Positions 1,915 to 64,000 of a stretch of DNA of 64,000 nt are shown in pieces. The notes beneath the pieces were generated by a model. The model had not been told where the DNA came from. It made no database searches and saw only the letters and a list, made by a program, of their open reading frames with translations. The stretch lies in sequence record MH383160. The stretch is one strand, 5' to 3'. A program made the translations under genes and the position numbers. Every line of letters starts with the position of its first letter. The first letter of the stretch is position 1. The DNA is from Escherichia phage UB.

Positions 1915-2462
1915 TTATCGTATCCATATAAAATATGATCTAGTGTACTTTGGACTTCTTCATGAAAGAATGAAGGGTAAACTTGTATTAATTTATCTTT
2001 AAGTTCAAGGGAATGGCATAGTTCTAATGTTTTGTAACAATCCTCGTACTGTGCCAGTACATGCAATGTACTTAACTGAAAATGTTGTTCTTCGGAGTAC
2101 AATAAATCATAAACCATATTATCGGATAAAAGATTAGATTTGATTGAAGGATCAAGTACTGTCTGATGGTGACCAACCCAAAAGATAGCTTTGGAGTTAA
2201 TGTTATTACAACCCCATCCTTTCCCCATCTTTTGGTGAATAGCAAATACACAGGAATCATACAAATTAATGTTCAGACGTTCTTCGTCTGCATGGATAGT
2301 TACACCATCAATAGATAGTGTATATTTGAAATCCATAGCCCCCTCACTTCGTGCACGGGAACTAAAGACGAGATATCGATGAATTATGGTATTGATTTTA
2401 TCTGCCCATCCTTCAACACATTTGGATGCACATAATGTAAAAAGATCATGATTGTAGTTCAT
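1911..2462 (-). CDS. FQ-motif family protein (hypothetical)
   Basis: ORF track 183 aa; motif EEQHFQLSTLH; RBS AAGGAGA upstream. Confidence 0.65.
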   Translation of the reverse strand: MNYNHDLFTLCASKCVEGWADKINTIIHRYLVFSSRARSEGAMDFKYTLSIDGVTIHADEERLNINLYDSCVFAIHQKMGKGWGCNNINSKAIFWVGHHQTVLDPSIKSNLLSDNMVYDLLYSEEQHFQLSTLHVLAQYEDCYKTLELCHSLELKDKLIQVYPSFFHEEVQSTLDHILYGYDK

Positions 2463-2491
2463 AAAATTCTCCTTGAGAACAATGTATCATA

Positions 2492-2517
2492 CAAAAAAAC
2501 CAGAGTCAACCCCTGGT
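2492..2517 (-). terminator. intrinsic terminator
   Basis: minus-strand hairpin ACCAG-loop-CTGGT followed by U7 run, just after stop of 2524..3105. Confidence 0.45.
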
Positions 2518-2523
2518 ACAAAT

Positions 2524-3105
2524 TTAATCCATCATAAGTGGGATGATTGCCCATATCTTTTTCATAATCATATCTTCAGTAAAAACAAATGTTTTAGGAG
2601 CAGTATATGATATTGACACACCAAATGGAAGTTTGATTGCATCATCAATTATATTATGAATATCAAACCATGTTTTAACATAATCATATGGTGGAAGTTC
2701 ATGAATTGTACTTAACTGAAAGTAATGTTCTTCACCAAAATCATTATATTCAATTTCACAAATTTTAGTGAATTGTTGATTCCATTTAGATATAATACTA
2801 TTTTTATTATTGTACATAGTAGTTCTATGCATAAAACCATTTTTGCTAGTATGATTTGATATTATGTTTTCTTCAATGTCAGTATCTATTTTAAAATTCA
2901 TATCAAAGTTGTAGTACGGACTCGAAGATTCTTTGAATTTTAAATGTAAATTGCGATTGTTATTAATTTCAATTTCAATACAAAACACATCTGAATCAAA
3001 ACGATTAAACTTGTAATCGTTATCTTCCGGTAGATTCTGTATTTTTTTCATAATACTAAGCATAGGGTGTACTACACTTTTAATAAAATCATTTGTTATT
3101 TTCAT
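2524..3105 (-). CDS. FQ-motif family protein (hypothetical)
   Basis: ORF track 193 aa; motif EEHYFQLSTIH. Confidence 0.65.
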   Translation of the reverse strand: MKITNDFIKSVVHPMLSIMKKIQNLPEDNDYKFNRFDSDVFCIEIEINNNRNLHLKFKESSSPYYNFDMNFKIDTDIEENIISNHTSKNGFMHRTTMYNNKNSIISKWNQQFTKICEIEYNDFGEEHYFQLSTIHELPPYDYVKTWFDIHNIIDDAIKLPFGVSISYTAPKTFVFTEDMIMKKIWAIIPLMMD

Positions 3106-3598
3106 AGTATTCCTTTAGAACTTTATATGATTCAACAATACTATCTTGTGTATAATTTGAACTATATACAACAGCACTTGTTTTAGTTGACCATAGATAT
3201 GACATAAAGGTTATAACACTACTACATGGACTTAATGTATTGTTTTGAAATTCAATTTCTTCAATGTTATCAGTACTGGTATAGATGAATTGGAAAGTAT
3301 CTCGTTTCTGATTCGATACCGAAACTAAAGTGCAATCAGTATAAGGGTTGTATATAAATGTCTCATTACTAATTGAACTATCATTAGTATATGAAGGTTT
3401 GGGAATATAAATCAAACGCATGATATCACGTTCAAGACCTGACTTATTACTTTCCACCAAAGAAATCATATCTATAATTGTCATATGTTCAACACTGACA
3501 TGGAACTTTTTGTTTAGAATTACATCTTTTGGAGAATTTTTATATGAAGACAAAATCTCATACATCTCAACCAATTCGCGTGCATTTAATAAACTCAT
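3089..3598 (-). CDS. FQ-motif family protein, divergent (hypothetical)
   Basis: ORF track 169 aa; motif EEIEFQNNTLS. Confidence 0.55.
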   Translation of the reverse strand: MSLLNARELVEMYEILSSYKNSPKDVILNKKFHVSVEHMTIIDMISLVESNKSGLERDIMRLIYIPKPSYTNDSSISNETFIYNPYTDCTLVSVSNQKRDTFQFIYTSTDNIEEIEFQNNTLSPCSSVITFMSYLWSTKTSAVVYSSNYTQDSIVESYKVLKEYYENNK

Positions 3599-5822: not shown

Positions 5823-6389
5823 TTATTTTGGTAAAACACTGTCAATGTACGCTAGAGCTTCATCTCCGAGGTACGTTCCATCTATTGTTATGTAATAGTT
5901 CATGGGAATATCACACCCAACCTTCTCATAAATTTTCATACATGATATCACATCTTCATCACAAATGGTACTCAATTGAAAAAGTACTTCATCAGTTAAA
6001 GGTACGATATCATGTTTAGATATAGGATTGGTATTTTCATTTAAAACAATATCAAACAAGTTGGGAGTATTCTTTGACGAAATGTAACGATGCTTACTAC
6101 GAATTACCATTCTCGATAGTGAAATACTGGAACTCCATCTTGGATCAACATCTTCATATGATAACGATATTAACATCTCGTGAAAATCTTGGAATTTCAT
6201 TGATGCATAATATGTTTTTTCCTCACCGTACATTCCAAATGATTTGAATTCAATGTCACCTATATTGTGTGTATCACTGGCACTATTCACGAAATTTAAC
6301 AGACTATTGATTAGTCTGATTAGAATATCATCTTTATCCATTCTTAAATAACTCCAAGTGCATGTCGTATAAATCTCTGAAGTCTTCAT
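5823..6389 (-). CDS. FQ-motif family protein (hypothetical)
   Basis: ORF track 188 aa; motif DEVLFQLSTIC; start may instead be internal ATG at 6341. Confidence 0.6.
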   Translation of the reverse strand: MKTSEIYTTCTWSYLRMDKDDILIRLINSLLNFVNSASDTHNIGDIEFKSFGMYGEEKTYYASMKFQDFHEMLISLSYEDVDPRWSSSISLSRMVIRSKHRYISSKNTPNLFDIVLNENTNPISKHDIVPLTDEVLFQLSTICDEDVISCMKIYEKVGCDIPMNYYITIDGTYLGDEALAYIDSVLPK

Positions 6390-6897
6390 AGAAATCTTTT
6401 TCTTCCAGAATATCCTTTAAACTAGGAAACTCTTCCATAATTTCTTCTATATCCGATTCTATGAAAAACCCTGATGGATTATCGTAGTTTTGTAACAGAT
6501 AACTGAAAGTAATAATGTAAAGAAGTTCATTAGGATCGTGAATTAAACTTAGCTGGAACATAGCTGATTCTAAATCGGATTCAGTACTAAGATCAACCCA
6601 ACGTGAATTTCTATAATCAATTCGTACTTGACTTGTATTTGGATTCCATGTGAAGCAATGTGTACCAATATGACCTATACAACCAACCCTTGTACTGTCT
6701 CCGGTATCAACACTGATATCAACAAATAGTTCAACACTGATATCGGATGATGTTACACGACCTTTTTTCAGAAATAAATCATTATCCTTACGAAATTGTT
6801 TGGATGAAAGAGTGTCAATGATGCACATCAATGTTTTTGCAAATGCAACACAATGACGAAATTCAAGCCTATGAAATTGGTAATCATTGATATTCAT
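6334..6897 (-). CDS. FQ-motif family protein (hypothetical)
   Basis: ORF track 187 aa; motif ESAMFQLSLIHD. Confidence 0.65.
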   Translation of the reverse strand: MNINDYQFHRLEFRHCVAFAKTLMCIIDTLSSKQFRKDNDLFLKKGRVTSSDISVELFVDISVDTGDSTRVGCIGHIGTHCFTWNPNTSQVRIDYRNSRWVDLSTESDLESAMFQLSLIHDPNELLYIITFSYLLQNYDNPSGFFIESDIEEIMEEFPSLKDILEEKDFYEDFRDLYDMHLELFKNG

Positions 6898-7436
6898 AAT
6901 TCAACCCCCAATATTTTATCAGCAATTGATATAACCTTATCATTGAATACATTACCAATCTCAATCCTTATATACATAGCAGGTGGAATCTTTCCTTGTA
7001 GTGAATAATATGTTTGTATACCTAAGTACTCATTATCTGATAATGAAAATTTGATTCTCTCCATATCAATGTCTGTTACTGGTAAATCAATCATTTCATA
7101 ATGGTAGTCAACGTTTTCAGTGTATATTTTATCGAAGTAATTTGAATAATCACTACTAATATAGATGCTATCATCACGAATAATCACTTTATAATCAGAA
7201 GGTTCAAATTTATCTTTAGAAGAAAAGAATGCATCATCTATCTTCTCTTCTCTTATACCGAATAACATTTTACCATCATATTTTACATCAAGAATACTAC
7301 CTAGTATATTAATGGTACAATGCTCATCAATATTATGACGTAAAGAACGAGTCTTGTATTTTGGGTTAATGAAAATTTTCATTAATTTTATACAAATGTC
7401 AGTAATGCATTTTACATTCTCATTTTCTATGTACAT
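6894..7436 (-). CDS. hypothetical protein
   Basis: ORF track 180 aa; 4-nt overlap coupling. Confidence 0.55.
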   Translation of the reverse strand: MYIENENVKCITDICIKLMKIFINPKYKTRSLRHNIDEHCTINILGSILDVKYDGKMLFGIREEKIDDAFFSSKDKFEPSDYKVIIRDDSIYISSDYSNYFDKIYTENVDYHYEMIDLPVTDIDMERIKFSLSDNEYLGIQTYYSLQGKIPPAMYIRIEIGNVFNDKVISIADKILGVEL

Positions 7437-7914
7437 TAAAAGCCCTCTTTAATTCTTTTACATTTTTAATGAATACTTTCATTGCAGAAATCTCAAAAGA
7501 TAATGTATTAAATTTGCAGTACTTTTTAAAGTACGACATTATGAATAACATTTTGAGTTCTTTTTCTGTGTAAATTAAACTATTTTGAAAGTAACTTTCT
7601 TCTGATAAATCATCAAGAAACGGATATAAAACTCCATTTGTTCTCAAGAACATGATACCTTCACTCCATGATCTAAATGAAAGGTAATCAGTCTTACCAC
7701 ATTCATATAAGGAGTTTATCATTCCATCAATCATTAAGGAGAACTCAATACTGTATCCTAATCTTTCACACTTGTATCTCTTATCTTCTTTCTTTGTAAT
7801 TACGAAGTGATGACCCAGTGAGTCTTTGTTATCGAAAATGAAATCAACTGTCTCTAAACACTCCTTAGCGAACTTCATAGTTTCTCTGTACTTTCGGTTC
7901 ATTAGTCTCTCCAA
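7420..7914 (-). CDS. FQ-motif family protein (hypothetical)
   Basis: ORF track 164 aa; motif EESYFQNSLIY. Confidence 0.65.
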   Translation of the reverse strand: MERLMNRKYRETMKFAKECLETVDFIFDNKDSLGHHFVITKKEDKRYKCERLGYSIEFSLMIDGMINSLYECGKTDYLSFRSWSEGIMFLRTNGVLYPFLDDLSEESYFQNSLIYTEKELKMLFIMSYFKKYCKFNTLSFEISAMKVFIKNVKELKRAFNVHRK

Positions 7915-8315
7915 ACTTTACCAGGGAAGTGTTTCTCGTAGTACTCATCATCACTTAACATATAATCAGGAGTTTCTACTTCTATGGTTTTGAAGATTGT
8001 TTCTGGAATGTGTGTGACTTTATTGGGTTGTACTTTATGTTCGCGTAAAACCTTCTGTATCGCTCCTAGACGTTGTAAATCGATACATGTAGGAAAGACT
8101 AAGCTGTACTGAAATAGCTCGTCGGGGGTCATTATAGACACATCCTTAGCTTGTTTGATTTTATTGTTGGCATCAATGAATATATCAAATCCTTGTACAG
8201 CATTATAGCTTACATAGGTTGTTTTATTTTTGTCAATAGGAGCACTTAAACGATATCCATATACCCCGTGTTGGTCAACAATGCATCGTTGCATAATTTT
8301 AATCATTTCGAACAT
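7902..8315 (-). CDS. FQ-motif family protein (hypothetical)
   Basis: ORF track 137 aa; motif PDELFQYSLVF. Confidence 0.65.
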   Translation of the reverse strand: MFEMIKIMQRCIVDQHGVYGYRLSAPIDKNKTTYVSYNAVQGFDIFIDANNKIKQAKDVSIMTPDELFQYSLVFPTCIDLQRLGAIQKVLREHKVQPNKVTHIPETIFKTIEVETPDYMLSDDEYYEKHFPGKVWRD

Positions 8316-54858: not shown

Positions 54859-55041
54859 TTAGTACCTGAATATAAGTAGGATAGTGTTATATAGCTGGTC
54901 ATAACTACTACTATTTTCTATACTTCGTTCTATGCAGTTATTGAATCCAAGTACTGCCAAATCGTTATCCAGAGGGACTTTATATCTGGCGTAGTGTTCA
55001 AAAATGCTGGGGAGAAATTGTTTGTAGTATTCTTTGTGCAT
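54859..55041 (-). CDS. MHKEYY family small protein (hypothetical)
   Basis: ORF track 60 aa; MHKEYYKQF...YNTILLIFRY. Confidence 0.55.
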   Translation of the reverse strand: MHKEYYKQFLPSIFEHYARYKVPLDNDLAVLGFNNCIERSIENSSSYDQLYNTILLIFRY

Positions 55042-55051
55042 ATTGTTCTCT

Positions 55052-55240
55052 TTAGTACTTGAATATTAGGGCGAGGATGTAATACAGTTTATATGTTCTA
55101 TCCTCGTACATTAGGGTGTACTTAGTACATTCTTGGAACATTGTTTTTGCGTCATCTTTTATGCCCAATGTAACGTTTGGTATAAGGCTTTGTAGATACA
55201 TTGGGAGTTTCTCTATGTAGTATTCTTTATAGTTGTTCAT
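55052..55240 (-). CDS. MHKEYY family small protein (hypothetical)
   Basis: ORF track 62 aa; MNNYKEYYIEKLPMYL...YYILALIFKY. Confidence 0.55.
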   Translation of the reverse strand: MNNYKEYYIEKLPMYLQSLIPNVTLGIKDDAKTMFQECTKYTLMYEDRTYKLYYILALIFKY

Positions 55241-55248
55241 ATTATGTG

Positions 55249-55428
55249 TTATTTCGTGAAAACAAGGGTTAGTACTGCATAGTACAAGTCATACGTATCT
55301 TTAGGGTTAATAGCACCTTTAATACATTCTTTCATTAATTCATTATAGATAATTTTAGTACTGAAGGTATTGGATGTTACTATATCGGAATTAAGGTACG
55401 ACAAGTAGAATTCTTTATGTTTGTGCAT
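55249..55428 (-). CDS. MHKEYY family small protein (hypothetical)
   Basis: 59-aa ORF MHKHKEFYLSYL...YYAVLTLVFTK; below ORF-track cutoff. Confidence 0.45.
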   Translation of the reverse strand: MHKHKEFYLSYLNSDIVTSNTFSTKIIYNELMKECIKGAINPKDTYDLYYAVLTLVFTK

Positions 55429-55429
55429 A

Positions 55430-55615
55430 TTAGTACTTATATATTAGTAAAAGGATGTGATACAGTACTCGATTATAGTCTTCAATATATATCGAGGATT
55501 TAGTGCACTGAATGAAGTAGTCTTTTTCGTAGTTTTTTTCTATACCCAATGGTTCTGTTGGTAGAAGGTGTTGGAGATACATTGGGAGTTTCTCTATGTA
55601 GTATTCTTTATGCAT
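55430..55615 (-). CDS. MHKEYY family small protein (hypothetical)
   Basis: ORF track ORF trimmed to ATG 55615 (MHKEYYIEKLPMYL). Confidence 0.55.
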   Translation of the reverse strand: MHKEYYIEKLPMYLQHLLPTEPLGIEKNYEKDYFIQCTKSSIYIEDYNRVLYHILLLIYKY

Positions 55616-56273
55616 AGTTTGTAATATACGTAATGAGGTGATGCATTTTCTTATTAGTACTGATAATTTCCTGTACATGTTTTGTCAGATTGTACGCGTT
55701 TTTATAGAGTACTGGATTATCGATTACAGTACTGTACATGAATAGTTCTTCTTCCTGTAGTTCTTTGTGTTCTAGTTCTTTGAGGAATTGCAGTACTGTA
55801 TCAGTTTCGTCAGTAGGTTGTGCTTGCCAGAAGTGCATTTTCTCGTGTACTTTTTCTGATCCTACGTAGTATCCATCACCGATTTGGAATTGAGCACTAC
55901 TGATATCATTTGGTGTATTACAATTCACGAATAGGTATACGTTTCCATAAGAGATATTCAAAACACACGGGATACCATTTAACTGTATAGTTAAGCCGAA
56001 ATATACGTTTTTTATATTTTTAGTACTAGTATTAGTACTCAATACTTTTAAATCAGTATTATAGATATTCGCATAATCAATAGAGATATTATTTTTCTTC
56101 AAGTACGATTTGAGGTTCTTAGATACGAGAACTGTACTGAATTTATCCTTTTTATTTCGTTTCTTTAGTACATTAGGGTGATAAGTATATGAAGATGTAA
56201 CTGATTCTGCTTGAATACTGTTGAGGTACTTAAAGTGCTTAAGGTATTGTTTACTGTGTGCATTAAGTTTCAT
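55608..56273 (-). CDS. FQ-motif family protein (hypothetical), outlier copy inside MHKEYY array
   Basis: ORF track 221 aa; motif EEELFMYSTVID. Confidence 0.6.
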   Translation of the reverse strand: MKLNAHSKQYLKHFKYLNSIQAESVTSSYTYHPNVLKKRNKKDKFSTVLVSKNLKSYLKKNNISIDYANIYNTDLKVLSTNTSTKNIKNVYFGLTIQLNGIPCVLNISYGNVYLFVNCNTPNDISSAQFQIGDGYYVGSEKVHEKMHFWQAQPTDETDTVLQFLKELEHKELQEEELFMYSTVIDNPVLYKNAYNLTKHVQEIISTNKKMHHLITYITNYA

Positions 56274-56283
56274 TTGGTTTCCT

Positions 56284-56463
56284 TTATATAGATGCCAGGG
56301 CGAGGATTTCCCTGTAGGGATTATCTTGTGTTAGTACAGAATAAATGCAGCTATTGAGATTAATATTTTTAGTACTTTTTGTTCCTAGTTTGTAGTAATC
56401 AACGAATGTGTCGTACATGAAACGGTCTTTTATGGTTATACGTTCTATATAGAATTGTTGCAT
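56284..56463 (-). CDS. MHKEYY family small protein, divergent (hypothetical)
   Basis: 59-aa ORF MQQFYIERITIKDRF...; below ORF-track cutoff. Confidence 0.4.
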   Translation of the reverse strand: MQQFYIERITIKDRFMYDTFVDYYKLGTKSTKNINLNSCIYSVLTQDNPYREILALASI

Positions 56464-56471
56464 AGTATTCC

Positions 56472-56654
56472 TTATATAGAGATTAGTTTCATTACTTCTC
56501 TGTATGTGTACTTTTCGTTTTGTGCATCTCTTGTGACGACATATAGGAAGGTGTGTTTATCTTTTTTGTTCCCGCAATTGTAGAAAATATTGAACTTATT
56601 GAAGTTGAATCTTTCGGCGTGTTGTAGTTTAGTTAAATAGAATTCTATGTTCAT
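56472..56654 (-). CDS. MHKEYY family small protein, divergent (hypothetical)
   Basis: ORF track 60 aa; MNIEFYLTKL...KYTYREVMKLISI. Confidence 0.5.
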   Translation of the reverse strand: MNIEFYLTKLQHAERFNFNKFNIFYNCGNKKDKHTFLYVVTRDAQNEKYTYREVMKLISI

Positions 56655-56662
56655 TTTATTCC

Positions 56663-56848
56663 TTACATTTCAATAAGTTTAAGTACTGCTCGGTACGTGT
56701 ACTTAGTTGTCAGTGCTTCTTTAATAGAAACACAGAAGTAATGTTTTTTGTCTCTTATACTGCCGCGTTTGTAGTACCACACATGGGAGTTGTGACTGTA
56801 CTTGTCTCTGTCGGATAGTTGTTGGTAGTAGTAGCTTATATGATTCAT
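56663..56848 (-). CDS. MHKEYY family small protein, divergent (hypothetical)
   Basis: ORF track 61 aa; ...KYTYRAVLKLIEM. Confidence 0.5.
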   Translation of the reverse strand: MNHISYYYQQLSDRDKYSHNSHVWYYKRGSIRDKKHYFCVSIKEALTTKYTYRAVLKLIEM

Positions 56849-57057
56849 TATAATGTAATTAGCCTTACTATATTAAAGTACTCGGTTCCTGGTGTACCTT
56901 GTAGTATATTACGCACGACATTTTTTTGGTGCTGGATGATTGCTGAAGGTGCGGTTCTTTTTAGTTTTTTTAAAGTACTGAATTCTTGTTTAAGTATGAA
57001 CTGTACATCTTTAGGGAGAATATCTATGTAGTACTGATGAATGTTTGTAGTTTTCAT
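56848..57057 (-). CDS. MHKEYY family small protein, divergent (hypothetical)
   Basis: ORF track 69 aa; MKTTNIHQYYIDILP... Confidence 0.5.
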   Translation of the reverse strand: MKTTNIHQYYIDILPKDVQFILKQEFSTLKKLKRTAPSAIIQHQKNVVRNILQGTPGTEYFNIVRLITL

Positions 57058-57067
57058 ATAGCACCTT

Positions 57068-57262
57068 TTAGAACTTAAAGATGAGGTTCAGGATAGAGCG
57101 GTACTTAGTTTCAGGGAACTGATGTTCTATTGCATAACGTGTCGCCATCCTGAAATCGTAATTGTAATATAGATTATCCTTTCTCATAGGTGGTGCTAAA
57201 GAGAATGATAGCTGGTCTTGCTTGTGTAGTTTACTACCATAGAAATCTTTATGATTATTCAT
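57068..57262 (-). CDS. MHKEYY family small protein (hypothetical)
   Basis: ORF track 64 aa; MNNHKDFY...LNLIFKF. Confidence 0.55.
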   Translation of the reverse strand: MNNHKDFYGSKLHKQDQLSFSLAPPMRKDNLYYNYDFRMATRYAIEHQFPETKYRSILNLIFKF

Positions 57263-57464
57263 AGAAGTAGATTAGTCCTATTAAACCTGAGTACATAATA
57301 TTTTTGTTATTGCATTCGATTGCTTCTAGAGTACTACGTATACAATTATTAAAGCAATCTCTACCGAATTGAGTATTGGTACTTACAGGTGATACACTCC
57401 TTAGAAACAATTGTTCTTCGTTGCTAAGGTATTTGGTGTAGAATTCTTTATGTTCAGTATTCAT
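57255..57464 (-). CDS. MHKEYY family small protein (hypothetical)
   Basis: ORF track 69 aa; MNTEHKEFYTKYLS... Confidence 0.55.
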   Translation of the reverse strand: MNTEHKEFYTKYLSNEEQLFLRSVSPVSTNTQFGRDCFNNCIRSTLEAIECNNKNIMYSGLIGLIYFYE

Positions 57465-57465
57465 A

Positions 57466-57669
57466 TTAGTACTCGATTAATAGGGTAAGGATGTAATAGT
57501 ATTGCATACATTCTACCCCTTGTAAAGCATTTCTTATGTTATTATTCCTGTACGAGTTCAGGAGTTTAGGGCTACGTTTGAGGTGTTTGAAATTAGTTTG
57601 TGTATGCAGTAGGCTTTCACGTAGACCTTTTGTTGGTAGTGCATCGATGTAGTACTGTTCGATATTCAT
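57466..57669 (-). CDS. MHKEYY family small protein, divergent (hypothetical)
   Basis: ORF track 67 aa; MNIEQYYIDALP...YYYILTLLIEY. Confidence 0.5.
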   Translation of the reverse strand: MNIEQYYIDALPTKGLRESLLHTQTNFKHLKRSPKLLNSYRNNNIRNALQGVECMQYYYILTLLIEY

Positions 57670-57893
57670 ATAGATAGCAGTACTAAGATTTTTGATAATT
57701 GTTTATTGCTATCCCCGCAGATGTTGCTGTGTAAAATACTCACAATGAGGGTATCAATTGCATTGTTCATCATAAGGGTGCATCCTGGACTATTATAATT
57801 TTTTAGCTCAATTAGCCACGAACTATCCGAGAGAAATTCCCCGTACTCTAGTTCATTTAGAGTATTGAGGTAGTACTTAAGAGTATTTGTCAT
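57666..57893 (-). CDS. MHKEYY family small protein, divergent (hypothetical)
   Basis: ORF track 75 aa; first gene of array; AAGGAG RBS. Confidence 0.5.
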   Translation of the reverse strand: MTNTLKYYLNTLNELEYGEFLSDSSWLIELKNYNSPGCTLMMNNAIDTLIVSILHSNICGDSNKQLSKILVLLSI

Positions 57894-57908
57894 GTGTAGT
57901 TCTCCTTA

Positions 57909-57937
57909 TATTCCTTCTATAGTACACCAGTACTGAA
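57909..57937 (-). promoter_or_regulatory. sigma70-like promoter for the MHKEYY array
   Basis: minus strand TTGACA-N17-TACTAT in the divergent intergenic region. Confidence 0.45.
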
Positions 57938-57964
57938 AGGATGTCAAGGGTTTTCTTTATGGGG

Positions 57965-57979
57965 TAAATATGATATAAT
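57965..57979 (+). promoter_or_regulatory. -10-only promoter-like element (candidate late-type promoter)
   Basis: TAAATATGATATAAT followed by GAATAAGGAGG RBS; no -35 match. Confidence 0.35.
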
Positions 57980-57995
57980 GAATAAGGAGGGAAAT

Positions 57996-59132
57996 ATGTT
58001 ACCTTTTGCAAGAATGATGAATTATGGGAACGTAGCACCAGATAAACTAAAAATACGTGATATTGTTGCAGGTGCTAATTCATTATTACTAATAACAGAG
58101 GATAATGAATTATGGGTGCGTGGTAATAATGCGTATGGCAAATTAGGTATAGGAACTGATACTATAGTGAATGTAACCGAGTGGACTAAAGTTAGAGATG
58201 ATGTTAAGTTTGCTTGTGCTAGTAATTTAGTATGCGTTGTATTAACTGTAGATAATAAAATTTTATACTGTGGTGATGAATGGTTTGAATCTGGTGGTTC
58301 GACAAGTTCTAAAGTTGTTACATGGAAAGATGTTACGACACAATTTAGTGCAGTGAATCTAAGCACAGTTCGTGAAATGAAAATAACTTATTATTGTGTA
58401 GGATTACTTACAAATGATAATAGATTATATGCTAAAGGATATGATAATAACCAATCATTTGGTGGTTCAACAAGCAAAGTTAATGCTGTATTAGTTGCGT
58501 CAAATGTTTCAAAATTCTACACTTCTCTATCTGGTACTATATATTCTAGTACTACTGGTGGTTACTATCGCTGTGGTATAAGCAATACTGGAGCATTGGG
58601 TACTAGCACAAATTTAACTTCTTATAATTTGTACTCTGCTCCCGAATTTGCATCCGAATGTGCAGTTGGTATGTCAACATTAAACTCTGGTATATTATAT
58701 TATGATACTAATGGTATCACTAGATATGTTATAGCAGGTCAAAATAGAAATTATCAACTAGGTAATTCTTCTTCAAATACCACAAACGTATATTCGTATA
58801 CAGAATTAACCGGATATAGAGGCAGGTTTAGGGATTTGTGGAGTGATATGAATAACTCTGTTCTTTCTTTTGCTATAAGCACAGATGGCAATACTTTATA
58901 TTATGCTGGTACTAACAATACACTATCTTCTGGTGATCCTGGTGTTGAATATTCATCTGCATTCAAAGAAGTACCACACGGGTTTAATGATATAACAAAG
59001 GCGGCATCGTTAGCATATCTATCTATAGTGCAAGATTCAACGGGATGGTATTATTCTGGAAATGCAACTACGTTATATGGTTTGCCATCGAGTGGTGAAT
59101 TTATACCATTACCATTACCAACATTAATTTAA
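57996..59132 (+). CDS. RCC1-like repeat (beta-propeller) protein, MLPFARM paralog family
   Basis: ORF trimmed to ATG 57996 after AAGGAGG; repeats GNNAYGKLGIG, GYDNNQSFGG, GQNRNYQLGN. Confidence 0.6.
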   Translation: MLPFARMMNYGNVAPDKLKIRDIVAGANSLLLITEDNELWVRGNNAYGKLGIGTDTIVNVTEWTKVRDDVKFACASNLVCVVLTVDNKILYCGDEWFESGGSTSSKVVTWKDVTTQFSAVNLSTVREMKITYYCVGLLTNDNRLYAKGYDNNQSFGGSTSKVNAVLVASNVSKFYTSLSGTIYSSTTGGYYRCGISNTGALGTSTNLTSYNLYSAPEFASECAVGMSTLNSGILYYDTNGITRYVIAGQNRNYQLGNSSSNTTNVYSYTELTGYRGRFRDLWSDMNNSVLSFAISTDGNTLYYAGTNNTLSSGDPGVEYSSAFKEVPHGFNDITKAASLAYLSIVQDSTGWYYSGNATTLYGLPSSGEFIPLPLPTLI

Positions 59133-59138
59133 ATATAG

Positions 59139-59169
59139 GCCAGTACTTGATACTGGCTTTCTTTTTTTT
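59139..59169 (+). terminator. intrinsic terminator
   Basis: GCCAGTA-CTTGA-TACTGGC then T-rich run. Confidence 0.6.
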
Positions 59170-59172
59170 GTA

Positions 59173-59188
59173 TTAAATATAGTATAAT
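59173..59188 (+). promoter_or_regulatory. -10-only promoter-like element
   Basis: conserved TTAAATATAGTATAAT immediately before GAATAAGGAGG. Confidence 0.35.
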
Positions 59189-59204
59189 GAATAAGGAGGG
59201 ATTT

Positions 59205-60314
59205 ATGTTACCTTTTGGAAGAATGGTTAAGTACGGAAATATTGTACCTGGTCCTAAAAATATAATTAAAGTTGGTGCTTCTACACAAGGTCAATTCTTA
59301 TTGACTGATTCACATGATTTATATTACATAGGTAGAAATCAAGGTGGTGAATCTGGAAATGGTAATACCAACACGGTATCTTCATGGATATTAGTAAGTG
59401 CAGATGTTTCTAATTTTTTCGTGGGTGATCGTACACTTGTTATTATTAAAAATGATAATACTATATGGACATCAGGTCAAACGTACTGGTTCTCATCTTC
59501 TACAACTACTTCTTACAGTACTGTATTAGTTGAAAGGACTAGTTGGTTTACCACGGCTATACCAGTAAGTGAGATTGCTAATATTGTATGTACAAATGGT
59601 TTAATATTTGTACTTAGCACTAATTCAGTACTCTATGGTGCAGGAGATAATGGATATCGTGGTTCTTTGGGTATTGGTTCATCATCAATTTATACATTAA
59701 CTCAATGTGCTACGAACGTTCGTAAAGTAATGACAAATGCGAATGATAGTATGTATCTTACATTAGATAATAAGCTATATAGTTCTGGATGGAATAGTAG
59801 TGGGCAGCATGGTACGGGGAACCAAACACAAATTAATACTTGGGGATTACGTAGTTCTGGTGTAATCGATGCAGCAATTGGTGGTAATGCATTAAATTAC
59901 TATAATGGTACATCATATTTCGTATGTGGTCAAACTCCAAACTTTCTTAGTTCAGGTACGACTACATTCCGTGCAGTTCCTGTAAGTACTTTGCCTAATA
60001 GTTCTCCGTTGTTTATGACGAATTCACCTGCATTAAATACTGCTACACAAATGGTAATTACTAGTACATATCAGAAGGGTGTTGGGGCGAACCGTGGTTT
60101 GGGATTAAACAATTCTCAAACTGGTGCTATATATAGTGCTACCAATTTACAATTACCCGTTGAAGTTAGTGAGATTAGGGATGTTCTTTTTAGTGATGGT
60201 TTGACATCGATATTAACCAAAAATGGAGATGTGTATAGTACTGGATCGTATTACGCCATTCCAGGTGCAATCGAGGATGTTGCAGTCTTTACTAAAATTG
60301 ATTTACCAAAATAA
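59205..60314 (+). CDS. RCC1-like repeat protein, MLPFGRM paralog family
   Basis: ORF trimmed to ATG 59205; repeats GDNGYRGSLGIG, GWNSSGQHGTG. Confidence 0.6.
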   Translation: MLPFGRMVKYGNIVPGPKNIIKVGASTQGQFLLTDSHDLYYIGRNQGGESGNGNTNTVSSWILVSADVSNFFVGDRTLVIIKNDNTIWTSGQTYWFSSSTTTSYSTVLVERTSWFTTAIPVSEIANIVCTNGLIFVLSTNSVLYGAGDNGYRGSLGIGSSSIYTLTQCATNVRKVMTNANDSMYLTLDNKLYSSGWNSSGQHGTGNQTQINTWGLRSSGVIDAAIGGNALNYYNGTSYFVCGQTPNFLSSGTTTFRAVPVSTLPNSSPLFMTNSPALNTATQMVITSTYQKGVGANRGLGLNNSQTGAIYSATNLQLPVEVSEIRDVLFSDGLTSILTKNGDVYSTGSYYAIPGAIEDVAVFTKIDLPK

Positions 60315-60320
60315 CATAAT

Positions 60321-60350
60321 GCCAGTACTTGATACTGGCTTTTATTTTTT
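60321..60350 (+). terminator. intrinsic terminator
   Basis: GCCAGTA-CTTGA-TACTGGC then TTTTATTTTTT. Confidence 0.6.
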
Positions 60351-60352
60351 GA

Positions 60353-60368
60353 TTAAATATAGTATAAT
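60353..60368 (+). promoter_or_regulatory. -10-only promoter-like element
   Basis: TTAAATATAGTATAAT before RBS. Confidence 0.35.
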
Positions 60369-60384
60369 GAATAAAGGAGGAATT

Positions 60385-61572
60385 ATGTTACCTTTTGCAA
60401 GAATGGTTAAGTACGGGAATAAAGTCATTCCATATGTTCCCAATTTTACTAAATTAGTCACCCCAGCAGTTGGTTATTCATTTACATGCACAATGCTGCT
60501 GGATGTAAATGGATCAGTGTGGGCTATGGGTCTTCAGAATGGTGGAATTTTTGGGTTAGGGAATACTACACAGGTTACTGAATGGACAAAAATATATAGC
60601 AATGTTAAAGATTTTTGGTGCAGTACAGGGAATGGGTTTTGTCTAATACGAACAAATGATGATAGATTCTTTTATAGTGGTTTAGATAAATGGCTAGGTA
60701 ATAATACAACAAATACTGTAACAACATTCACTGAATGTACGAGTTATTTTACACAATTTGGTATTTCAAAAATCAAAGAGATATATGTAGGTCTTGATTA
60801 TGCTTTGATTTTAGGTACTGATAATAGTTTATATTTGTTAGGTGATAATAAAAATTCAAAGTTTGGTTTAAACACTGCATCATATTTTAATAAATTTACA
60901 TTTTTAGTCGATAATGTTAAAAAATTCTGTTCATCCATCACACCCTCTAACTGGATTATTAAACTAGATAATACAATATGGCGTACTGGGACAACATCTC
61001 ATGGAACGTTGGGAAATGGAGTTCAAAACACATATATATTTCCTTGGGTTCAATATAAGGGCACACCTGTTACCGAAGCTATAGACGTTTTTTGTAGTGC
61101 GAGTTATATTGGTATTATAACTAAAGGTACACCAGAATCATGTCCTATGTATACAATGGGCTATCAAGCTGATGGTCAGTTGGGTAATAATACTACAGCA
61201 GGGGGTTATAAATTAACGCCAACGTTATCGAAAACCGTTCCAGATGATAGTGAATTCATTCGAATTGAAAACATCTCATCCCGTGGCCTGGTATATTATA
61301 GCTCTGGTAAAATTTATAGTACTGGTTATAATAACAATGGTCAATTGGCAAATAACAGTACAATTAATTCTGGTTCATTTGTTGAAGCAATTTTACCTGA
61401 TGGTGTTAATTTTAAGAAAAGTGAATCACTTGTAGCTGGGAACGATGCAACGTTGTATATGTACATTAATAATAAATTATACTACGCGGGGAAATCCCCT
61501 GATAATATTTCAGCAAGTAGTTCATCTGTCATGAAAGAGTTCCCACTTCCAACAATCAATGCCAGTACTTGA
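60385..61572 (+). CDS. RCC1-like repeat protein, MLPFARM paralog family
   Basis: ORF-track ORF 60223..61572 trimmed to ATG 60385 after AAAGGAGG; repeats GLQNGGIFGLGN, GYQADGQLGNN, GYNNNGQLANN. Confidence 0.6.
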   Translation: MLPFARMVKYGNKVIPYVPNFTKLVTPAVGYSFTCTMLLDVNGSVWAMGLQNGGIFGLGNTTQVTEWTKIYSNVKDFWCSTGNGFCLIRTNDDRFFYSGLDKWLGNNTTNTVTTFTECTSYFTQFGISKIKEIYVGLDYALILGTDNSLYLLGDNKNSKFGLNTASYFNKFTFLVDNVKKFCSSITPSNWIIKLDNTIWRTGTTSHGTLGNGVQNTYIFPWVQYKGTPVTEAIDVFCSASYIGIITKGTPESCPMYTMGYQADGQLGNNTTAGGYKLTPTLSKTVPDDSEFIRIENISSRGLVYYSSGKIYSTGYNNNGQLANNSTINSGSFVEAILPDGVNFKKSESLVAGNDATLYMYINNKLYYAGKSPDNISASSSSVMKEFPLPTINAST

Positions 61573-61590
61573 TACTGGTATTCTTATTTG
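61561..61590 (+). terminator. intrinsic terminator
   Basis: CCAGTA-CTTGA-TACTGG then T-rich run; overlaps stop codon. Confidence 0.55.
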
Positions 61591-61592
61591 TA

Positions 61593-61608
61593 TTAAATAT
61601 AGTATAAT
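61593..61608 (+). promoter_or_regulatory. -10-only promoter-like element
   Basis: TTAAATATAGTATAAT before RBS. Confidence 0.35.
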
Positions 61609-61624
61609 GAATAAAGGAGGAATT

Positions 61625-62812
61625 ATGTTACCTTTTGCAAGAATGATGAATTATGGGAATATTGTGCCTGTACCACTACAAATTAAGAAAATAATACCAA
61701 CTGATACTGATGTTGTTGTACTTTATACTGATGGTCAACTATACGCACGAGGAAATAATGCTTTTGGGAAGTTTGGAAGAGGCAACAACACTGCATTAAG
61801 AACATGGACATTAATTAGAGAAAACGTTAACGATTTCTGGATCACACAAGGAACTTTGTTAGTTCAAGATAATGACTTAAATTATTACTATTGTGGATAT
61901 GGTGATCATATTGGTTTACCAAGTAGTACTACTACGTTTTTAAGTTATAACCAATATATTGAAAATTTGTTCACGCAAAGTTCAAGTACTTCAATTAAAC
62001 AGATGTATGCAGGTACTACGTGGTTTACTTTCTTAATGGATAATAATACAATATGGAGTACTGGTTGGAGTGGGGGTAAACAATTCGCTGATGGTACGGG
62101 TAGTACTCAACAAATAACAGATGGATCATTTGTAAAAGCTGTCACGCCTGATGTTGATATTGCACAAATACAGTCAACAAATAACTGTGTAATGTTTTTT
62201 GATACACAAAATAATTTATATATTGGTGGTGGTACGTCAGGTATAAGTACTAGTACTACATGGACTTCATATAATGAATATACTTTATATAAACCAAGTA
62301 CAACATACACAAAAACGTTACAATACACTGGATGCTCAAGTGGTGCAGTCAGTGCTTTGGTTGAGAATCCAAGTACTGGTGCACGTCAGTTTCTAGTTGG
62401 TGGTTTAGCGAATAATGGTGCATGGGGCAACAATACCACAACCAGTTCAGCACTTGCTGTATTAGGGAGCAATAGTACGACATTACCACCCGGTACTTTG
62501 TATTCAATTCATACTGGATACCCAACACAATCTAGTATACTAGTTACGAGTACTGGTGTATATGCAACTGGTTTAAATGCGAGTAGTTATGCTGGCTCTT
62601 TGGGTGTAGGTTCTAATGTTACTATTGGTAAATTTACTGCATGTCCAATGCCTACACAAATAACATATTCTATGTATGATAAAATAAAAATATATAGAGG
62701 TTCATATCGTACATTTCTAACTGATATGAAAAATATATATTCAACCGGAACTTATGATGATGGTGGTCCTAGTACAACTAGATATGTACTAGATACACCC
62801 CGTCAATTATAA
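61625..62812 (+). CDS. RCC1-like repeat protein, MLPFARM paralog family
   Basis: ORF-track ORF trimmed to ATG 61625; repeat GNNAFGKFGRGN. Confidence 0.6.
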   Translation: MLPFARMMNYGNIVPVPLQIKKIIPTDTDVVVLYTDGQLYARGNNAFGKFGRGNNTALRTWTLIRENVNDFWITQGTLLVQDNDLNYYYCGYGDHIGLPSSTTTFLSYNQYIENLFTQSSSTSIKQMYAGTTWFTFLMDNNTIWSTGWSGGKQFADGTGSTQQITDGSFVKAVTPDVDIAQIQSTNNCVMFFDTQNNLYIGGGTSGISTSTTWTSYNEYTLYKPSTTYTKTLQYTGCSSGAVSALVENPSTGARQFLVGGLANNGAWGNNTTTSSALAVLGSNSTTLPPGTLYSIHTGYPTQSSILVTSTGVYATGLNASSYAGSLGVGSNVTIGKFTACPMPTQITYSMYDKIKIYRGSYRTFLTDMKNIYSTGTYDDGGPSTTRYVLDTPRQL

Positions 62813-62818
62813 TATAAT

Positions 62819-62849
62819 AGCCAGTACTCAGTACTGGCTTTCTTATTTG
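62819..62849 (+). terminator. intrinsic terminator
   Basis: 9-bp stem AGCCAGTAC-TCA-GTACTGGCT then T-rich run. Confidence 0.6.
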
Positions 62850-62851
62850 TA

Positions 62852-62867
62852 TTAAATATAGTATAAT
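62852..62867 (+). promoter_or_regulatory. -10-only promoter-like element
   Basis: TTAAATATAGTATAAT before RBS. Confidence 0.35.
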
Positions 62868-62883
62868 GAATAAAGGAGGAAGT

Positions 62884-63621
62884 ATGTTACCTTTTGGAAG
62901 AATGGTAAAGTACGGGAATAAAATTGAATATAAGCCAGATGGTGAACAATTAATCACGACAATAGGAACAACACAATTTACAGTTCCTGCTGGCGTTACC
63001 GAAATATCAGTATGTGTTATTTCGCCGGGTGGTCAACGTGGTGCTGGTGGCGGCTTATCGTGGCGTAATAATATTCCGGTTACTAGTGGTGAGTACTTAA
63101 GTGTTTCTCTTACACATCCCAACACTACTACACCAGTTGAAAACGGTTTATATCGTGGAACTGAAAAACTATGTGTTAGCTTCACTGGTGAATATAGGGT
63201 TGGTGGACTAGGTGGGAAAGCTGCTAACGCTATTAATGATGGTGGTGGTAATGGGGGCAACGCTGGTGTAAGTGGTGGTGCAGTCATTGGTGGTGGTGCT
63301 GGTGGCTACACTGGTAAAGGTGGTAACGGAGATGCAATCACTGGTGAAAATGGTGCTGGCGGCGGCGGTGGTGGTGGTGCATTCTATAATACCTCGTTCA
63401 TTGGTACGGGTGGTGGTACTGGTATCATTGTTCAAGGTGCTAATGGTATTGGCGGTAGATACGATGGTTCATATAATGGTGGTGCTGGTAGTGGTGGTGC
63501 TGGTAAGATGTATGGTGGTGGTGGTAGTATATGGGATAATTTTTCTTATACGGCTGCTGGTGGTGGTGCTGTGCGAATAATATGGGGACGTGGGAGATAT
63601 TATCCTAACAATTCAGTCTAA
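62884..63621 (+). CDS. MLPFGRM-family protein with glycine-rich C-terminal region
   Basis: ORF trimmed to ATG 62884; shared N-terminus MLPFGRMVKYGN; C-terminal 150 aa about half Gly (GGGAGGYTGKGGNGD..., GGGGGGGAF...). Confidence 0.55.
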   Translation: MLPFGRMVKYGNKIEYKPDGEQLITTIGTTQFTVPAGVTEISVCVISPGGQRGAGGGLSWRNNIPVTSGEYLSVSLTHPNTTTPVENGLYRGTEKLCVSFTGEYRVGGLGGKAANAINDGGGNGGNAGVSGGAVIGGGAGGYTGKGGNGDAITGENGAGGGGGGGAFYNTSFIGTGGGTGIIVQGANGIGGRYDGSYNGGAGSGGAGKMYGGGGSIWDNFSYTAAGGGAVRIIWGRGRYYPNNSV

Positions 63622-63628
63622 AATATAG

Positions 63629-63658
63629 GCCAGTACTTGATACTGGCTTTCTTATTTG
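63629..63658 (+). terminator. intrinsic terminator
   Basis: GCCAGTA-CTTGA-TACTGGC then T-rich run. Confidence 0.6.
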
Positions 63659-63660
63659 TA

Positions 63661-63676
63661 TTAAATATAGTATAAT
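63661..63676 (+). promoter_or_regulatory. -10-only promoter-like element
   Basis: TTAAATATAGTATAAT before RBS. Confidence 0.35.
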
Positions 63677-63693
63677 GAATAAGGAGGGGAATT

Positions 63694-64000
63694 ATGTTAC
63701 CTTTTGCAAGAATGGTTAAGTACGGGAATATAGCACCAGTTCCAGTAGTTCCTACAATAAAAGATTTTAAGATTGGCTTTTCACATGAAGTGTTATTGGA
63801 CAGTGCAGGTGATGCATGGGGTATTGGATACAATACAGATGGGCAGTTAGGCTTTTTGGATGCAAATACCAATTCACTAGGTGTGTGGTCTAAGATATAT
63901 ACTGATGTTCGATTAATTGGAGTTACTGCTAGATATACAGTGGTAGTTACTAATAATAATAGAATCCTTTACGCAGGAAATAACTTAATTTCTAGTACTA
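63694..64000 (+). CDS. RCC1-like repeat protein, MLPFARM paralog family (partial, continues beyond window end)
   Basis: ATG 63694 after AAGGAGGG; MLPFARMVKYGN...GYNTDGQLGF; no stop in window so absent from ORF track. Confidence 0.5.
   Translation, partial: MLPFARMVKYGNIAPVPVVPTIKDFKIGFSHEVLLDSAGDAWGIGYNTDGQLGFLDANTNSLGVWSKIYTDVRLIGVTARYTVVVTNNNRILYAGNNLISST

Follow-up and report, generated by a model that had tools for sequence, protein, structure and literature searches.

An array of MLPF-tagged genes in Escherichia phage UB: one N-terminal peptide, unrelated heads and a putative late-promoter cassette

The stretch analysed here, hereafter the window, comprises 64,000 nt of Escherichia phage UB (MH383160), and its last part (57,965-64,000, plus strand) holds the beginning of an array of genes whose products share a short N-terminal tag. 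The six array genes in the window start at 57996, 59205, 60385, 61625, 62884 and 63694, and all six products begin with MLPF[AG]RM[MV][NK]YGN, as an initial annotation of this DNA had read and as the translations of the open reading frames (ORFs) confirmed. The explanation preferred here, with a probability of about 55%, is that the array encodes late-expressed, low-copy and interchangeable binding modules which are docked to the virion through the tag, probably on its outside. What the analysis itself shows is the anatomy of the sequence, the folds, how the tag is distributed and the statistics of the promoter motif; the presence in virions is taken from published work on relatives, and late timing, docking by the tag, an external location and an adhesin function are inferred.

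The region represents the first six genes of an Asteriusvirus-type array of about 13, every gene encoding a compact binding-type domain, which is a seven-bladed RCC1-type propeller in five cases and a glycine-rich domain in one. According to this model, each gene would form its own transcription unit, with a T4-type late promoter (TAAATA, no -35 element) read by a phage gp55-like sigma factor; behind this promoter would come a short leader that holds a strong Shine-Dalgarno sequence, then the gene itself and, at its end, a hairpin serving as intrinsic terminator. The tag would dock unrelated heads onto one common virion site, so that different low-copy modules would be mixed on each particle, most likely surface-exposed and acting as accessory adhesins for glycans or proteins of the host envelope. 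The near-identical 104-nt boundaries between the genes would double as recombination homology by which whole genes are swapped, gained or lost between relatives.

The shared N-terminal peptide and the heads it carries

The tag has the 12-residue consensus MLPF-x-R-M-x-x-YGN (peptide form MLPFARMVKYGNIAPVP) and exists in two haplotypes, MMNY and MVKY. Searches with tblastn, with alignments starting from residue 1, returned 5-14 copies per Asteriusvirus genome, and 1-5 copies were found in Eneladusvirus, Mimasvirus and other Rak2-like phages. In GAP32, Yersinia phage fHe-Yen9-04 and Erwinia phage Kaldavass, all array genes begin with MLPF[PAS][IRQV][ILM]xxYGN or MLPFPIISNT, including genes of non-RCC1 type which encode a 'BNR repeat' protein and proteins of 169, 205, 210 and 212 aa, and the tag is also kept in CBB, on a 357,154-bp IMG/VR contig and elsewhere. 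A degenerate-DNA scan of IMG/VR for ATG-Leu-Pro-Phe-(5 codons)-Tyr-Gly-Asn gave 24 loci, nearly all on contigs of 348-378 kb; three matches on small contigs (352 aa, MLPFTPLDGYGNMRGK, without Shine-Dalgarno sequence) were regarded as unrelated and left out. Without their first 15 residues, 88 tagged ORFs fell into at least 10 unrelated head clusters, among them RCC1, RCC1+Kelch double propellers, LamG_3 (concanavalin-A-like lectin, four times), glycine-rich heads and several unannotated ones. The double propellers are tagged proteins of about 670 aa at four loci, in which Pfam recognises an RCC1-type propeller and a C-terminal Kelch propeller. Across genera the codons of Y10, G11 and N12 vary synonymously, and selection must therefore act on the peptide and not on the DNA alone.

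A single tag on at least 10 unrelated head clusters represents the combination of an attachment part with an exchangeable head by which receptor-binding proteins are recognised. It appears rather likely, judging from the sequences, that the tag is a docking signal. A more far-reaching version is put forward tentatively, namely that MLPF-x-x-x-x-x-YGN could be a portable virion-docking tag of about 12 residues used across the Rak2-like clade, whereby any tagged head would plug into a common acceptor, possibly the hexon-centre 'fibre-anchoring' protein or the hair-bearing sheath rings. The result would be a multivalent and exchangeable display of adhesins, made fully modular in Asteriusvirus by giving each gene its own promoter and terminator. 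Nothing relevant to the MLPF motif or to newer Asteriusvirus structures was found in the literature searched. As for genomic position, tagged genes lie within a few kb of the end of the linear record in GAP32, CBB (where they adjoin the terminal repeat), fHe-Yen9-04, Serratia phage BF, Erwinia phages pEa_SNUABM_19 and pEa_SNUABM_47 and Xanthomonas phage XaC1, the exception being pEa_SNUABM_12 (312 kb of 358 kb), which suggests a largely conserved position near the genome terminus.

The initial annotation had described six RCC1-like paralogs, and this holds for genes 1-4 and 6. For genes 1, 2, 3 and 6 the score on RCC1 or RCC1_2 (Pfam PF00415 / PF13540) is above the gathering threshold, and gene 4 stays sub-threshold on the RCC1 repeat models. 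All five match WD40_RLD (PF25390) at E values of 4e-7 to 1.5e-28, under its 150-bit cutoff, as well as phrog_4219 (E down to 8e-116). Among these five, a structure model was made for gene 3 with AlphaFold2 (predicted local distance difference test, pLDDT, 79.8; predicted template modelling score, pTM, 0.83). Foldseek aligned it with UVR8 (7vgg_B, E 1.5e-21, template modelling (TM) score 0.77/0.80), the RCC1-like domain (RLD) of HERC2, RPGR and RCC1 (1a12) at E values of 1.5e-21 to 1e-13 and TM scores of 0.6-0.8, the propellers of UVR8, HERC2 and RPGR ranking above RCC1 proper. The RCC1 fold of the propeller-type genes is therefore regarded as practically certain. The repeated G-x-N-x-x-G-[QK]-[LF]-G motifs on which the fold had initially been proposed were not recovered as such: the strict form occurs once each in genes 1, 4 and 6 and is absent from genes 2, 3 and 5. 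Consequently, the blades are degenerate, too much so for this signature to serve as a classifier, and it was discarded for that purpose. With the eukaryotic RCC1-like propellers (RCC1, UVR8, HERC2 RLD, RPGR) the phage proteins share the seven-bladed fold and the Pfam RCC1 repeat matches at a sequence identity of 13-19%; they differ in being virion-associated and in carrying the added N-terminal tag, and a Ran guanine nucleotide exchange or chromatin role is unsupported for them.

Gene 5, on the other hand, gives no RCC1 signal in Pfam and belongs to phrog_4474, and structure prediction, by which the propeller was obtained for gene 3, gave for gene 5 a confident model of another fold (pLDDT 93.1, pTM 0.89). 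Homologs were found on large phage contigs as glycine-rich proteins of about 245 aa; distant ones carry the domain PF21722 or occur joined to fibronectin type III domains. By itself, gene 5 stays below Pfam detection for PF21722, unlike the PF21722 glycine-rich proteins proper, but two of its homologs are above the threshold, a tagged relative on the 357,154-bp IMG/VR contig matches at E 7e-4 (under the cutoff), and the pattern FTVPxGVT...GGGG...VRIIWG is common to gene 5 and PF21722 proteins. The best solved structure in Foldseek, and the only one near significance, was the cyanophage Pam3 fiber (two chains, E 1e-3, TM 0.27-0.30), a weak match counted as a hint only; a profile search of the gene 5 family against PDB sequences gave no match, and neither did NCBIfam for genes 1, 3 and 5. 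In other large phages the homologs of gene 5 mostly begin with other short conserved peptides (MLELL, MIELLAISG, MFEMML; e.g. PVP-SE1 gp19), and the glycine-rich head may thus be joined to lineage-specific N-terminal tags in other phage groups.

In the models of genes 3 and 5, residues 1-12 are placed outside the domain, at a pLDDT of about 50 or less, and are connected to it by a short proline-rich linker. The proteins are near-neutral (isoelectric point, pI, 5.1-9.2), with lysine plus arginine at 5-7.6% and serine, threonine, asparagine and glycine together at about 40%. Elsewhere, an RCC1 propeller is part of a Pseudomonas phage Littlefix protein with the annotation 'tail fiber protein' and of a phage PollyC protein with a T7 tail-fibre N-terminal domain.

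The intergenic cassette and its putative late promoter

A repeat search returned a single family, with six copies of 104 nt spaced 809-1259 nt apart. The unit consists, in this order, of a hairpin, a T-run, TTAAATATAGTATAAT, a Shine-Dalgarno sequence and the first 12 codons. Column identity among the six copies is about 0.8-0.97 from the hairpin to codon 12 and reaches the background of about 0.55 by codon 15; in pairwise comparisons, nucleotide identity is 0.90 over codons 1-12 and 0.34 over codons 13-40, and the tagged proteins of the window are 24-36% identical overall. The hairpin GCCAGTACTTGATACTGGC or a near variant occurs at 59139, 60321, 61561, 62820 and 63629 (chance expectation 0.01), and TTAAATATAGTATAATGAATAA(A)GGAGG occurs five times where none is expected. 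Folding energies of -10 to -13.7 kcal/mol (z -3.3 to -4.3) and the T-rich runs 3' of the stems satisfy the stem-loop and U-run definition of intrinsic (Rho-independent) terminators, and termination is accordingly predicted at all five hairpins. A terminator scan picked up 5/5 of them (12 sites against 4.5 expected in the region), and the U-run is interrupted (UUUCUUAUUUG) at four of the five.

All features of the array lie on the plus strand. It opens with a diverged first copy of the cassette element, GTAAATATGATATAATGAATAA (57964..57985), in which the late-type core TAAATA at 57965-57970 precedes the Shine-Dalgarno sequence AAGGAGGG, and gene 1 follows (57996..59132; RCC1-type propeller, 378 aa). 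Gene 1 has the promoter part of the cassette and no hairpin upstream of it, since it opens the array, divergent from the minus-strand early block. Hairpin 1 (GCCAGTACTTGATACTGGC with T-run, 59139..59168, -11.5 kcal/mol, z -3.5) is terminator-like and is followed by the element TTAAATATAGTATAATGAATAAGGAGGG (59173..59200), with TAAATA at 59174-59179, TATAAT at 59183-59188 and then the Shine-Dalgarno sequence of gene 2 (59205..60314; RCC1-type propeller, 369 aa). Hairpin 2 with its T-run (60321..60352, -10.0 kcal/mol, z -4.25) and the next element (60353..60380, TAAATA at 60354) precede gene 3 (60385..61572; seven-bladed RCC1-type propeller, 395 aa), whose TGA stop sits in the loop of hairpin 3 (GCCAGTACTTGATACTGGT with T-rich run, 61561..61592, -11.6 kcal/mol). 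The element at 61593..61620 (TAAATA at 61594) leads to gene 4 (61625..62812; RCC1-type propeller, 395 aa), behind which hairpin 4 is the variant GCCAGTACTCAGTACTGGC, with a 9-bp stem, a 3-nt loop and a T-rich run (62820..62851, -13.7 kcal/mol). Gene 5 (62884..63621; glycine-rich, non-RCC1, 245 aa) follows the element at 62852..62879 (TAAATA at 62853), and hairpin 5 with its T-rich run (63629..63660, -12.6 kcal/mol) and a last element (63661..63688, TAAATA at 63662) lead to gene 6, an RCC1-type propeller of which the 5' part (63694..64000, 102 codons) is present before it is cut by the window end. The bracketing of every gene by hairpins, claimed initially, thus applies to the five near-identical hairpins, gene 1 having none upstream and gene 6 leaving the window.

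The same cassettes contain TAAATA just 5' of TATAAT in 6/6 cases, and the former is probably the working promoter element, as a T4-like late core, as suggested by the following sequence comparisons. The upstream regions of 28 structural or mass spectrometry (MS)-verified phAPEC6 genes were extracted before any motif search, and TAAATA was found 16-70 nt 5' of the start in 18 of the 28, mostly as [TCA]ATAAATA or CTAAATA, compared with 1/87 minus-strand early ORFs of the window and 1-2% of random 55-nt windows. Counts of TAAATA in the window are 21 for the plus strand, 8 of them within the final 6 kb, and 7 for the minus strand, which codes for the early genes; with 64 and 80 expected from a Markov-1 model, the motif is depleted about 3-fold and about 11-fold, respectively. 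With 28 occurrences, against 78-170 for the others, it is the rarest of the 15 A4T2 hexamers in the window, which is consistent with selection against stray late promoters. Furthermore, GGGTAAATA stands before the first array gene in GAP32, fHe-Yen9-04 and Kaldavass as it does at gene 1, and TATAAT is absent upstream of these orthologous arrays. The comparison with late promoters of relatives that had been proposed at the outset therefore favours TAAATA, kept before orthologous arrays and structural genes alike, and does not extend to TATAAT. The motif ATAAATA had already been proposed as the late motif of CBB and GAP32 (PMC5259590), and the present counts sharpen the definition of the late promoter in this clade by showing how strongly its core is avoided elsewhere.

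A candidate reader of such promoters is phAPEC6 gp237c, which on its matches to phrog_234 ('late sigma transcription factor', E 8e-18) and phrog_12791 (E 3e-154) is a gp55-type late sigma; it is not encoded within the window. By analogy with T4 late-promoter geometry, a start set by TAAATA would leave a leader of about 17-19 nt. With the T4 late units (TATAAATA, gp55) the cassettes have in common a putative -10-type element without -35, the core TAAATA, its place before structural genes and the presence of a gp55-type sigma in relatives of the phage. They differ in the cassette core, ATTAAATA or GGTAAATA, which matches 6/8 positions of TATAAATA, and in that homologs of gp33 and gp45 have been reported absent from CBB and its clade (PMC5259590).

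If TAAATA were incidental, host sigma-70 could read the cassette from TATAAT alone and the genes need not be late. Each of the six copies does contain a perfect TATAAT. A sigma-70 scan listed none of them, there being no acceptable -35 partner, and direct reading of the sequence, in which no TGn extension was found either, agrees with the -10-only element of the initial annotation; overall, this consensus scan was uninformative (49 sites against 50 expected). TATAAT also ends 5-6 nt from the Shine-Dalgarno sequence, and transcription would then start in or after the latter, therefore removing or truncating the ribosome-binding site. Together with its absence before the arrays of three other genera, in which G(G)GTAAATA is kept, and with the counter-selection of TAAATA outside and its enrichment before structural genes, this makes sigma-70 control unlikely. 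The initial view of independent units under a promoter unlike the early ones is plausible, fits the data and was right in kind, the element itself probably being TAAATA instead of TATAAT. Slightly less probable still is a 104-nt near-identity which merely reflects gene conversion or the recent spread of a repeat, without regulatory role, in an array transcribed as a single read-through operon. The MMNY and MVKY haplotypes do resemble conversion tracts, and the arrays of other genera, such as fHe-Yen9-04 and Kaldavass, are tight operons with 10-nt spacers, the stop inside TAAGGAG and a single upstream late promoter; from this layout it follows that the hairpin and promoter for each gene are specific to the Asteriusvirus group. 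Against it, the order of stop, hairpin, T-run, promoter core, Shine-Dalgarno sequence and ATG is exact in every copy, the hairpin variant at 62820 stays stable despite its altered loop, and gene 1 has the promoter part without a hairpin; moreover, homogenisation and function are compatible.

In two of the five hairpin-bearing cassettes (59130-59182 and 63620-63670), the hairpin and T-run have TAAATATAG on either side, the left flank copies being TAAATATAG at 59130 and TAAAATATAG at 63621. They resemble a short direct repeat around the terminator, unlikely by chance because TAAATA is so rare in the window, and may record the insertion of a terminator beside a pre-existing late promoter. An Rfam scan of 57000-64000 gave a sub-threshold preQ1-II match only (25.8 bits against 47; E 0.5), which was taken as chance.

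Relatives, virion association and function

Megablast searches with the array region and with another part of the window matched JP4, 121Q, PBECO4, phAPEC6, G17 and others at 92-96% identity. The window belongs to an Asteriusvirus-type jumbo coliphage and the locus is already known: eleven RCC1-like proteins have been reported in phAPEC6 (PMC7247149) and homologs in 13 genes of 121Q (PMC5259590). The Asteriusvirus array (121Q gp234-248, PBECO4, phAPEC6 gp549-gp010) is of the same family and at the same locus as that of the window, and is annotated 'DNA condensation protein' or 'regulator of chromosome condensation'. The product of gene 3 is in databases as a protein of Escherichia phage UB (100% identity), and that of gene 5 is 99.6% identical (1 substitution) to a protein on a 351.6-kb Asteriusvirus contig. 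The cassette is confined to the array: the phAPEC6 record has 13 of the promoter elements and 11 of the hairpins, and neither occurs in 100 kb of structural-gene DNA.

Tagged proteins have been found in purified virions of three phages. When tagged starts were mapped onto the published MS lists, 16 were recovered in total, namely gp003, 005, 006, 007, 009, 010, 549 and 551 of phAPEC6 (PMC7247149 Table 1), and CBB_536, 537, 548, 549, 551, 552 and 553 of CBB together with gp001 of GAP32 (PMC5259590). Gene 6 is 88% identical to phAPEC6 gp005, one of these proteins. Association of the tagged family with the virion is consequently held with high confidence, and of the 'late or virion genes' of the initial annotation the virion part is supported, indirectly, by this published MS of relatives. 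In the phAPEC6 record (MK817115), three tagged ORFs are unannotated or mis-annotated (2434-3543, 6063-7253 and 7325-8059). The glycine-rich gene is annotated only as the fragment gp004 (7716-8018), and its protein therefore could not be found by MS. About 2.4 kb is also repeated at the two ends of the record, which is 352,598 bp long where the paper gives 350,175 bp; the starts at 3 and 1218, which repeat those at 350178 and 351393, most likely belong to an untrimmed overlap and were not counted as duplications. The papers on Sharanji and UE-S1 do not discuss the family.

Compared with phAPEC6, the array is mosaic. Genes 2 and 5 are 99% identical (99.5% for gene 2 and the ORF at 2434) and gene 4 is 89% identical to the ORF at 6063 (rate of synonymous substitution, dS, 0.38), while genes 1 and 3, two of the six, have no phAPEC6 ortholog, their best matches being at 27-38% (27-35% for gene 1). 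Identity along the alignment steps up at two cassettes, at cassette 3 from 0.50 to 0.95 and at cassette 4 from about 0.87 to 1.00, and falls to 0.77 about 140 nt into gene 6, so that two of the three breakpoints are on cassettes. Such jumps are, as far as the alignment can tell, what recombination cassette by cassette leaves behind when it breaks at the conserved unit or close to it. Between neighbouring orthologs dS ranges from 0.005 to 0.43, about 100-fold, and the ratio of non-synonymous to synonymous rates (dN/dS) is 0.08-0.17, which indicates purifying selection and, therefore, diversification by exchange and not by fast point substitution.

A tail-fibre or receptor-binding role had been proposed initially as an inference. 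It remains one, with the domain types of the wider tagged family favouring a binding or adhesin role, and an external adhesin function is put at even odds. External binding is favoured because the heads are compact interaction or carbohydrate-binding folds, because such heads occur in tail fibres, because the composition is near-neutral and rich in Ser, Thr, Asn and Gly, and because the host phages bear fibres. The capsid and sheath fibres of these phages are unexplained, and a hexon-centre 'fibre-anchoring' protein has been described in them (PMC7247149; PMC5646251; PMC5259590). Modular receptor-binding proteins (T7-like tail fibres; the branched tailspikes of RaK2/phiKp24, CBA120 and G7C) likewise join a conserved N-terminus to a variable binding head that is exchanged between relatives, and an RCC1 propeller does occur on a protein with a T7 tail-fibre N-terminal domain. 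Unlike in these, the conserved part here is a 12-residue peptide and not a folded anchor domain, and the tagged proteins are small, probably monomeric and globular, and encoded far from the baseplate/fibre module.

Several points weigh against docked external modules under late control. The phAPEC6 virion list includes thymidylate synthase, SSB and a RecA-like protein (PMC7247149), and detection by 1-5 peptides in MS is therefore no proof of structural incorporation. The inner body of 121Q and phAPEC6 (PMC5646251; PMC7247149) makes an internal location possible, the place on the particle and the docking partner are hypothetical, and globular proteins of 25-40 kDa cannot themselves form hairs of about 120 nm. 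Positive selection is absent among the orthologs compared, at the dN/dS given above. With regard to expression, late timing and termination are predictions from sequence, the core matches TATAAATA partially, and TATAAT could act as a weak sigma-70 -10 element.

The T-even internal-protein genes have variable bodies, a common 10-residue targeting sequence and mosaic loci, and the tagged proteins resemble their products in having a short conserved N-terminal peptide on unrelated, strain-variable virion proteins from a plastic locus. They could accordingly be internal head proteins, from the inner body or ejected, with the MLPF tag as a capsid-targeting signal and heads that act in the host after ejection, for instance against defence systems. 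The array is mosaic between close relatives as the T-even loci are, the tag is short, N-terminal and disordered in the models, peptide counts in virions are low (PMC7247149 Table 1) and an inner body has been described in 121Q and phAPEC6 (PMC5646251; PMC7247149). The T4-like reading of the tag was nevertheless ranked lower, since no conserved Glu cleavage motif (T4 gp21 type, L/I-x-E) follows it and Glu is missing from the first 25-30 residues of most members. Heads of the LamG lectin-like, Kelch, RCC1 and PF21722 types are typical of extracellular binding proteins, the gene 5 homologs have fibronectin type III partners and RCC1 heads occur in annotated tail fibres, and the proteins are not small and basic as the T-even ones are. 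An internal role is thus considered improbable, yet clearly less so than the role implied by the database names, namely that phage DNA is condensed or organised by the tagged proteins, a suggestion made with regard to the inner body (PMC7247149). In favour of this role there are only the family name of the fold and the detection in virions; RCC1-type propellers serve interactions in general, and for the one modelled here UVR8, HERC2 and RPGR outrank RCC1 as structural matches, the content of basic residues is low, and the same tag stands on lectin-like, Kelch and glycine-rich heads without any link to DNA. On composition and head variety the 'DNA condensation' label was rejected, and the chance that it is correct seems very slight.

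Returning to docked binding modules, the paralog array and its presence in virions have been published (PMC7247149; PMC5259590), and the late motif had been predicted for sister genera. Those accounts treat the proteins as DNA-condensation candidates; the tag, the non-RCC1 member, the cassette and the mosaicism are unmentioned in the literature searched. What thus appears new is a tag common to many head folds, the membership of gene 5 and of many 'hypothetical' or 'structural' proteins in one tagged set, the terminator/late-promoter cassette specific to Asteriusvirus and its mosaicism. The themes themselves, modular receptor-binding proteins and T-even targeting-sequence cassettes, are known, and this is not a new kind of system. 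In place of a misleading name copied through dozens of jumbo-phage genomes, a testable model is offered, according to which many virion proteins of Rak2-like jumbo phages, with diverse domains, would be marked by one short tag. Should this tag be a docking signal, it would give a handle on the builders or occupants of the unexplained hairs and capsid fibres of phAPEC6, 121Q and CBB, could explain how the surface-binding repertoire varies by cassette exchange, and would provide a minimal tag with which a jumbo phage could display foreign domains; should the model fail, what is left is simply the published paralog array.

The divergent early block beside the array

On the minus strand at 57919-57947, a good sigma-70-type promoter (TTGACA-17-TACTAT) is directed away from the array into the early block, and the gap of 100 nt between the two (57894-57995) is thus a divergent promoter region, early on one side and putatively late on the other. 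Beyond it, the minus strand carries at 54859-57893 a head-to-tail tandem run of at least 13 small ORFs of 59-82 aa, with similar starts (M..[HK]KE[FY]Y...L) and similar C-terminal ends.

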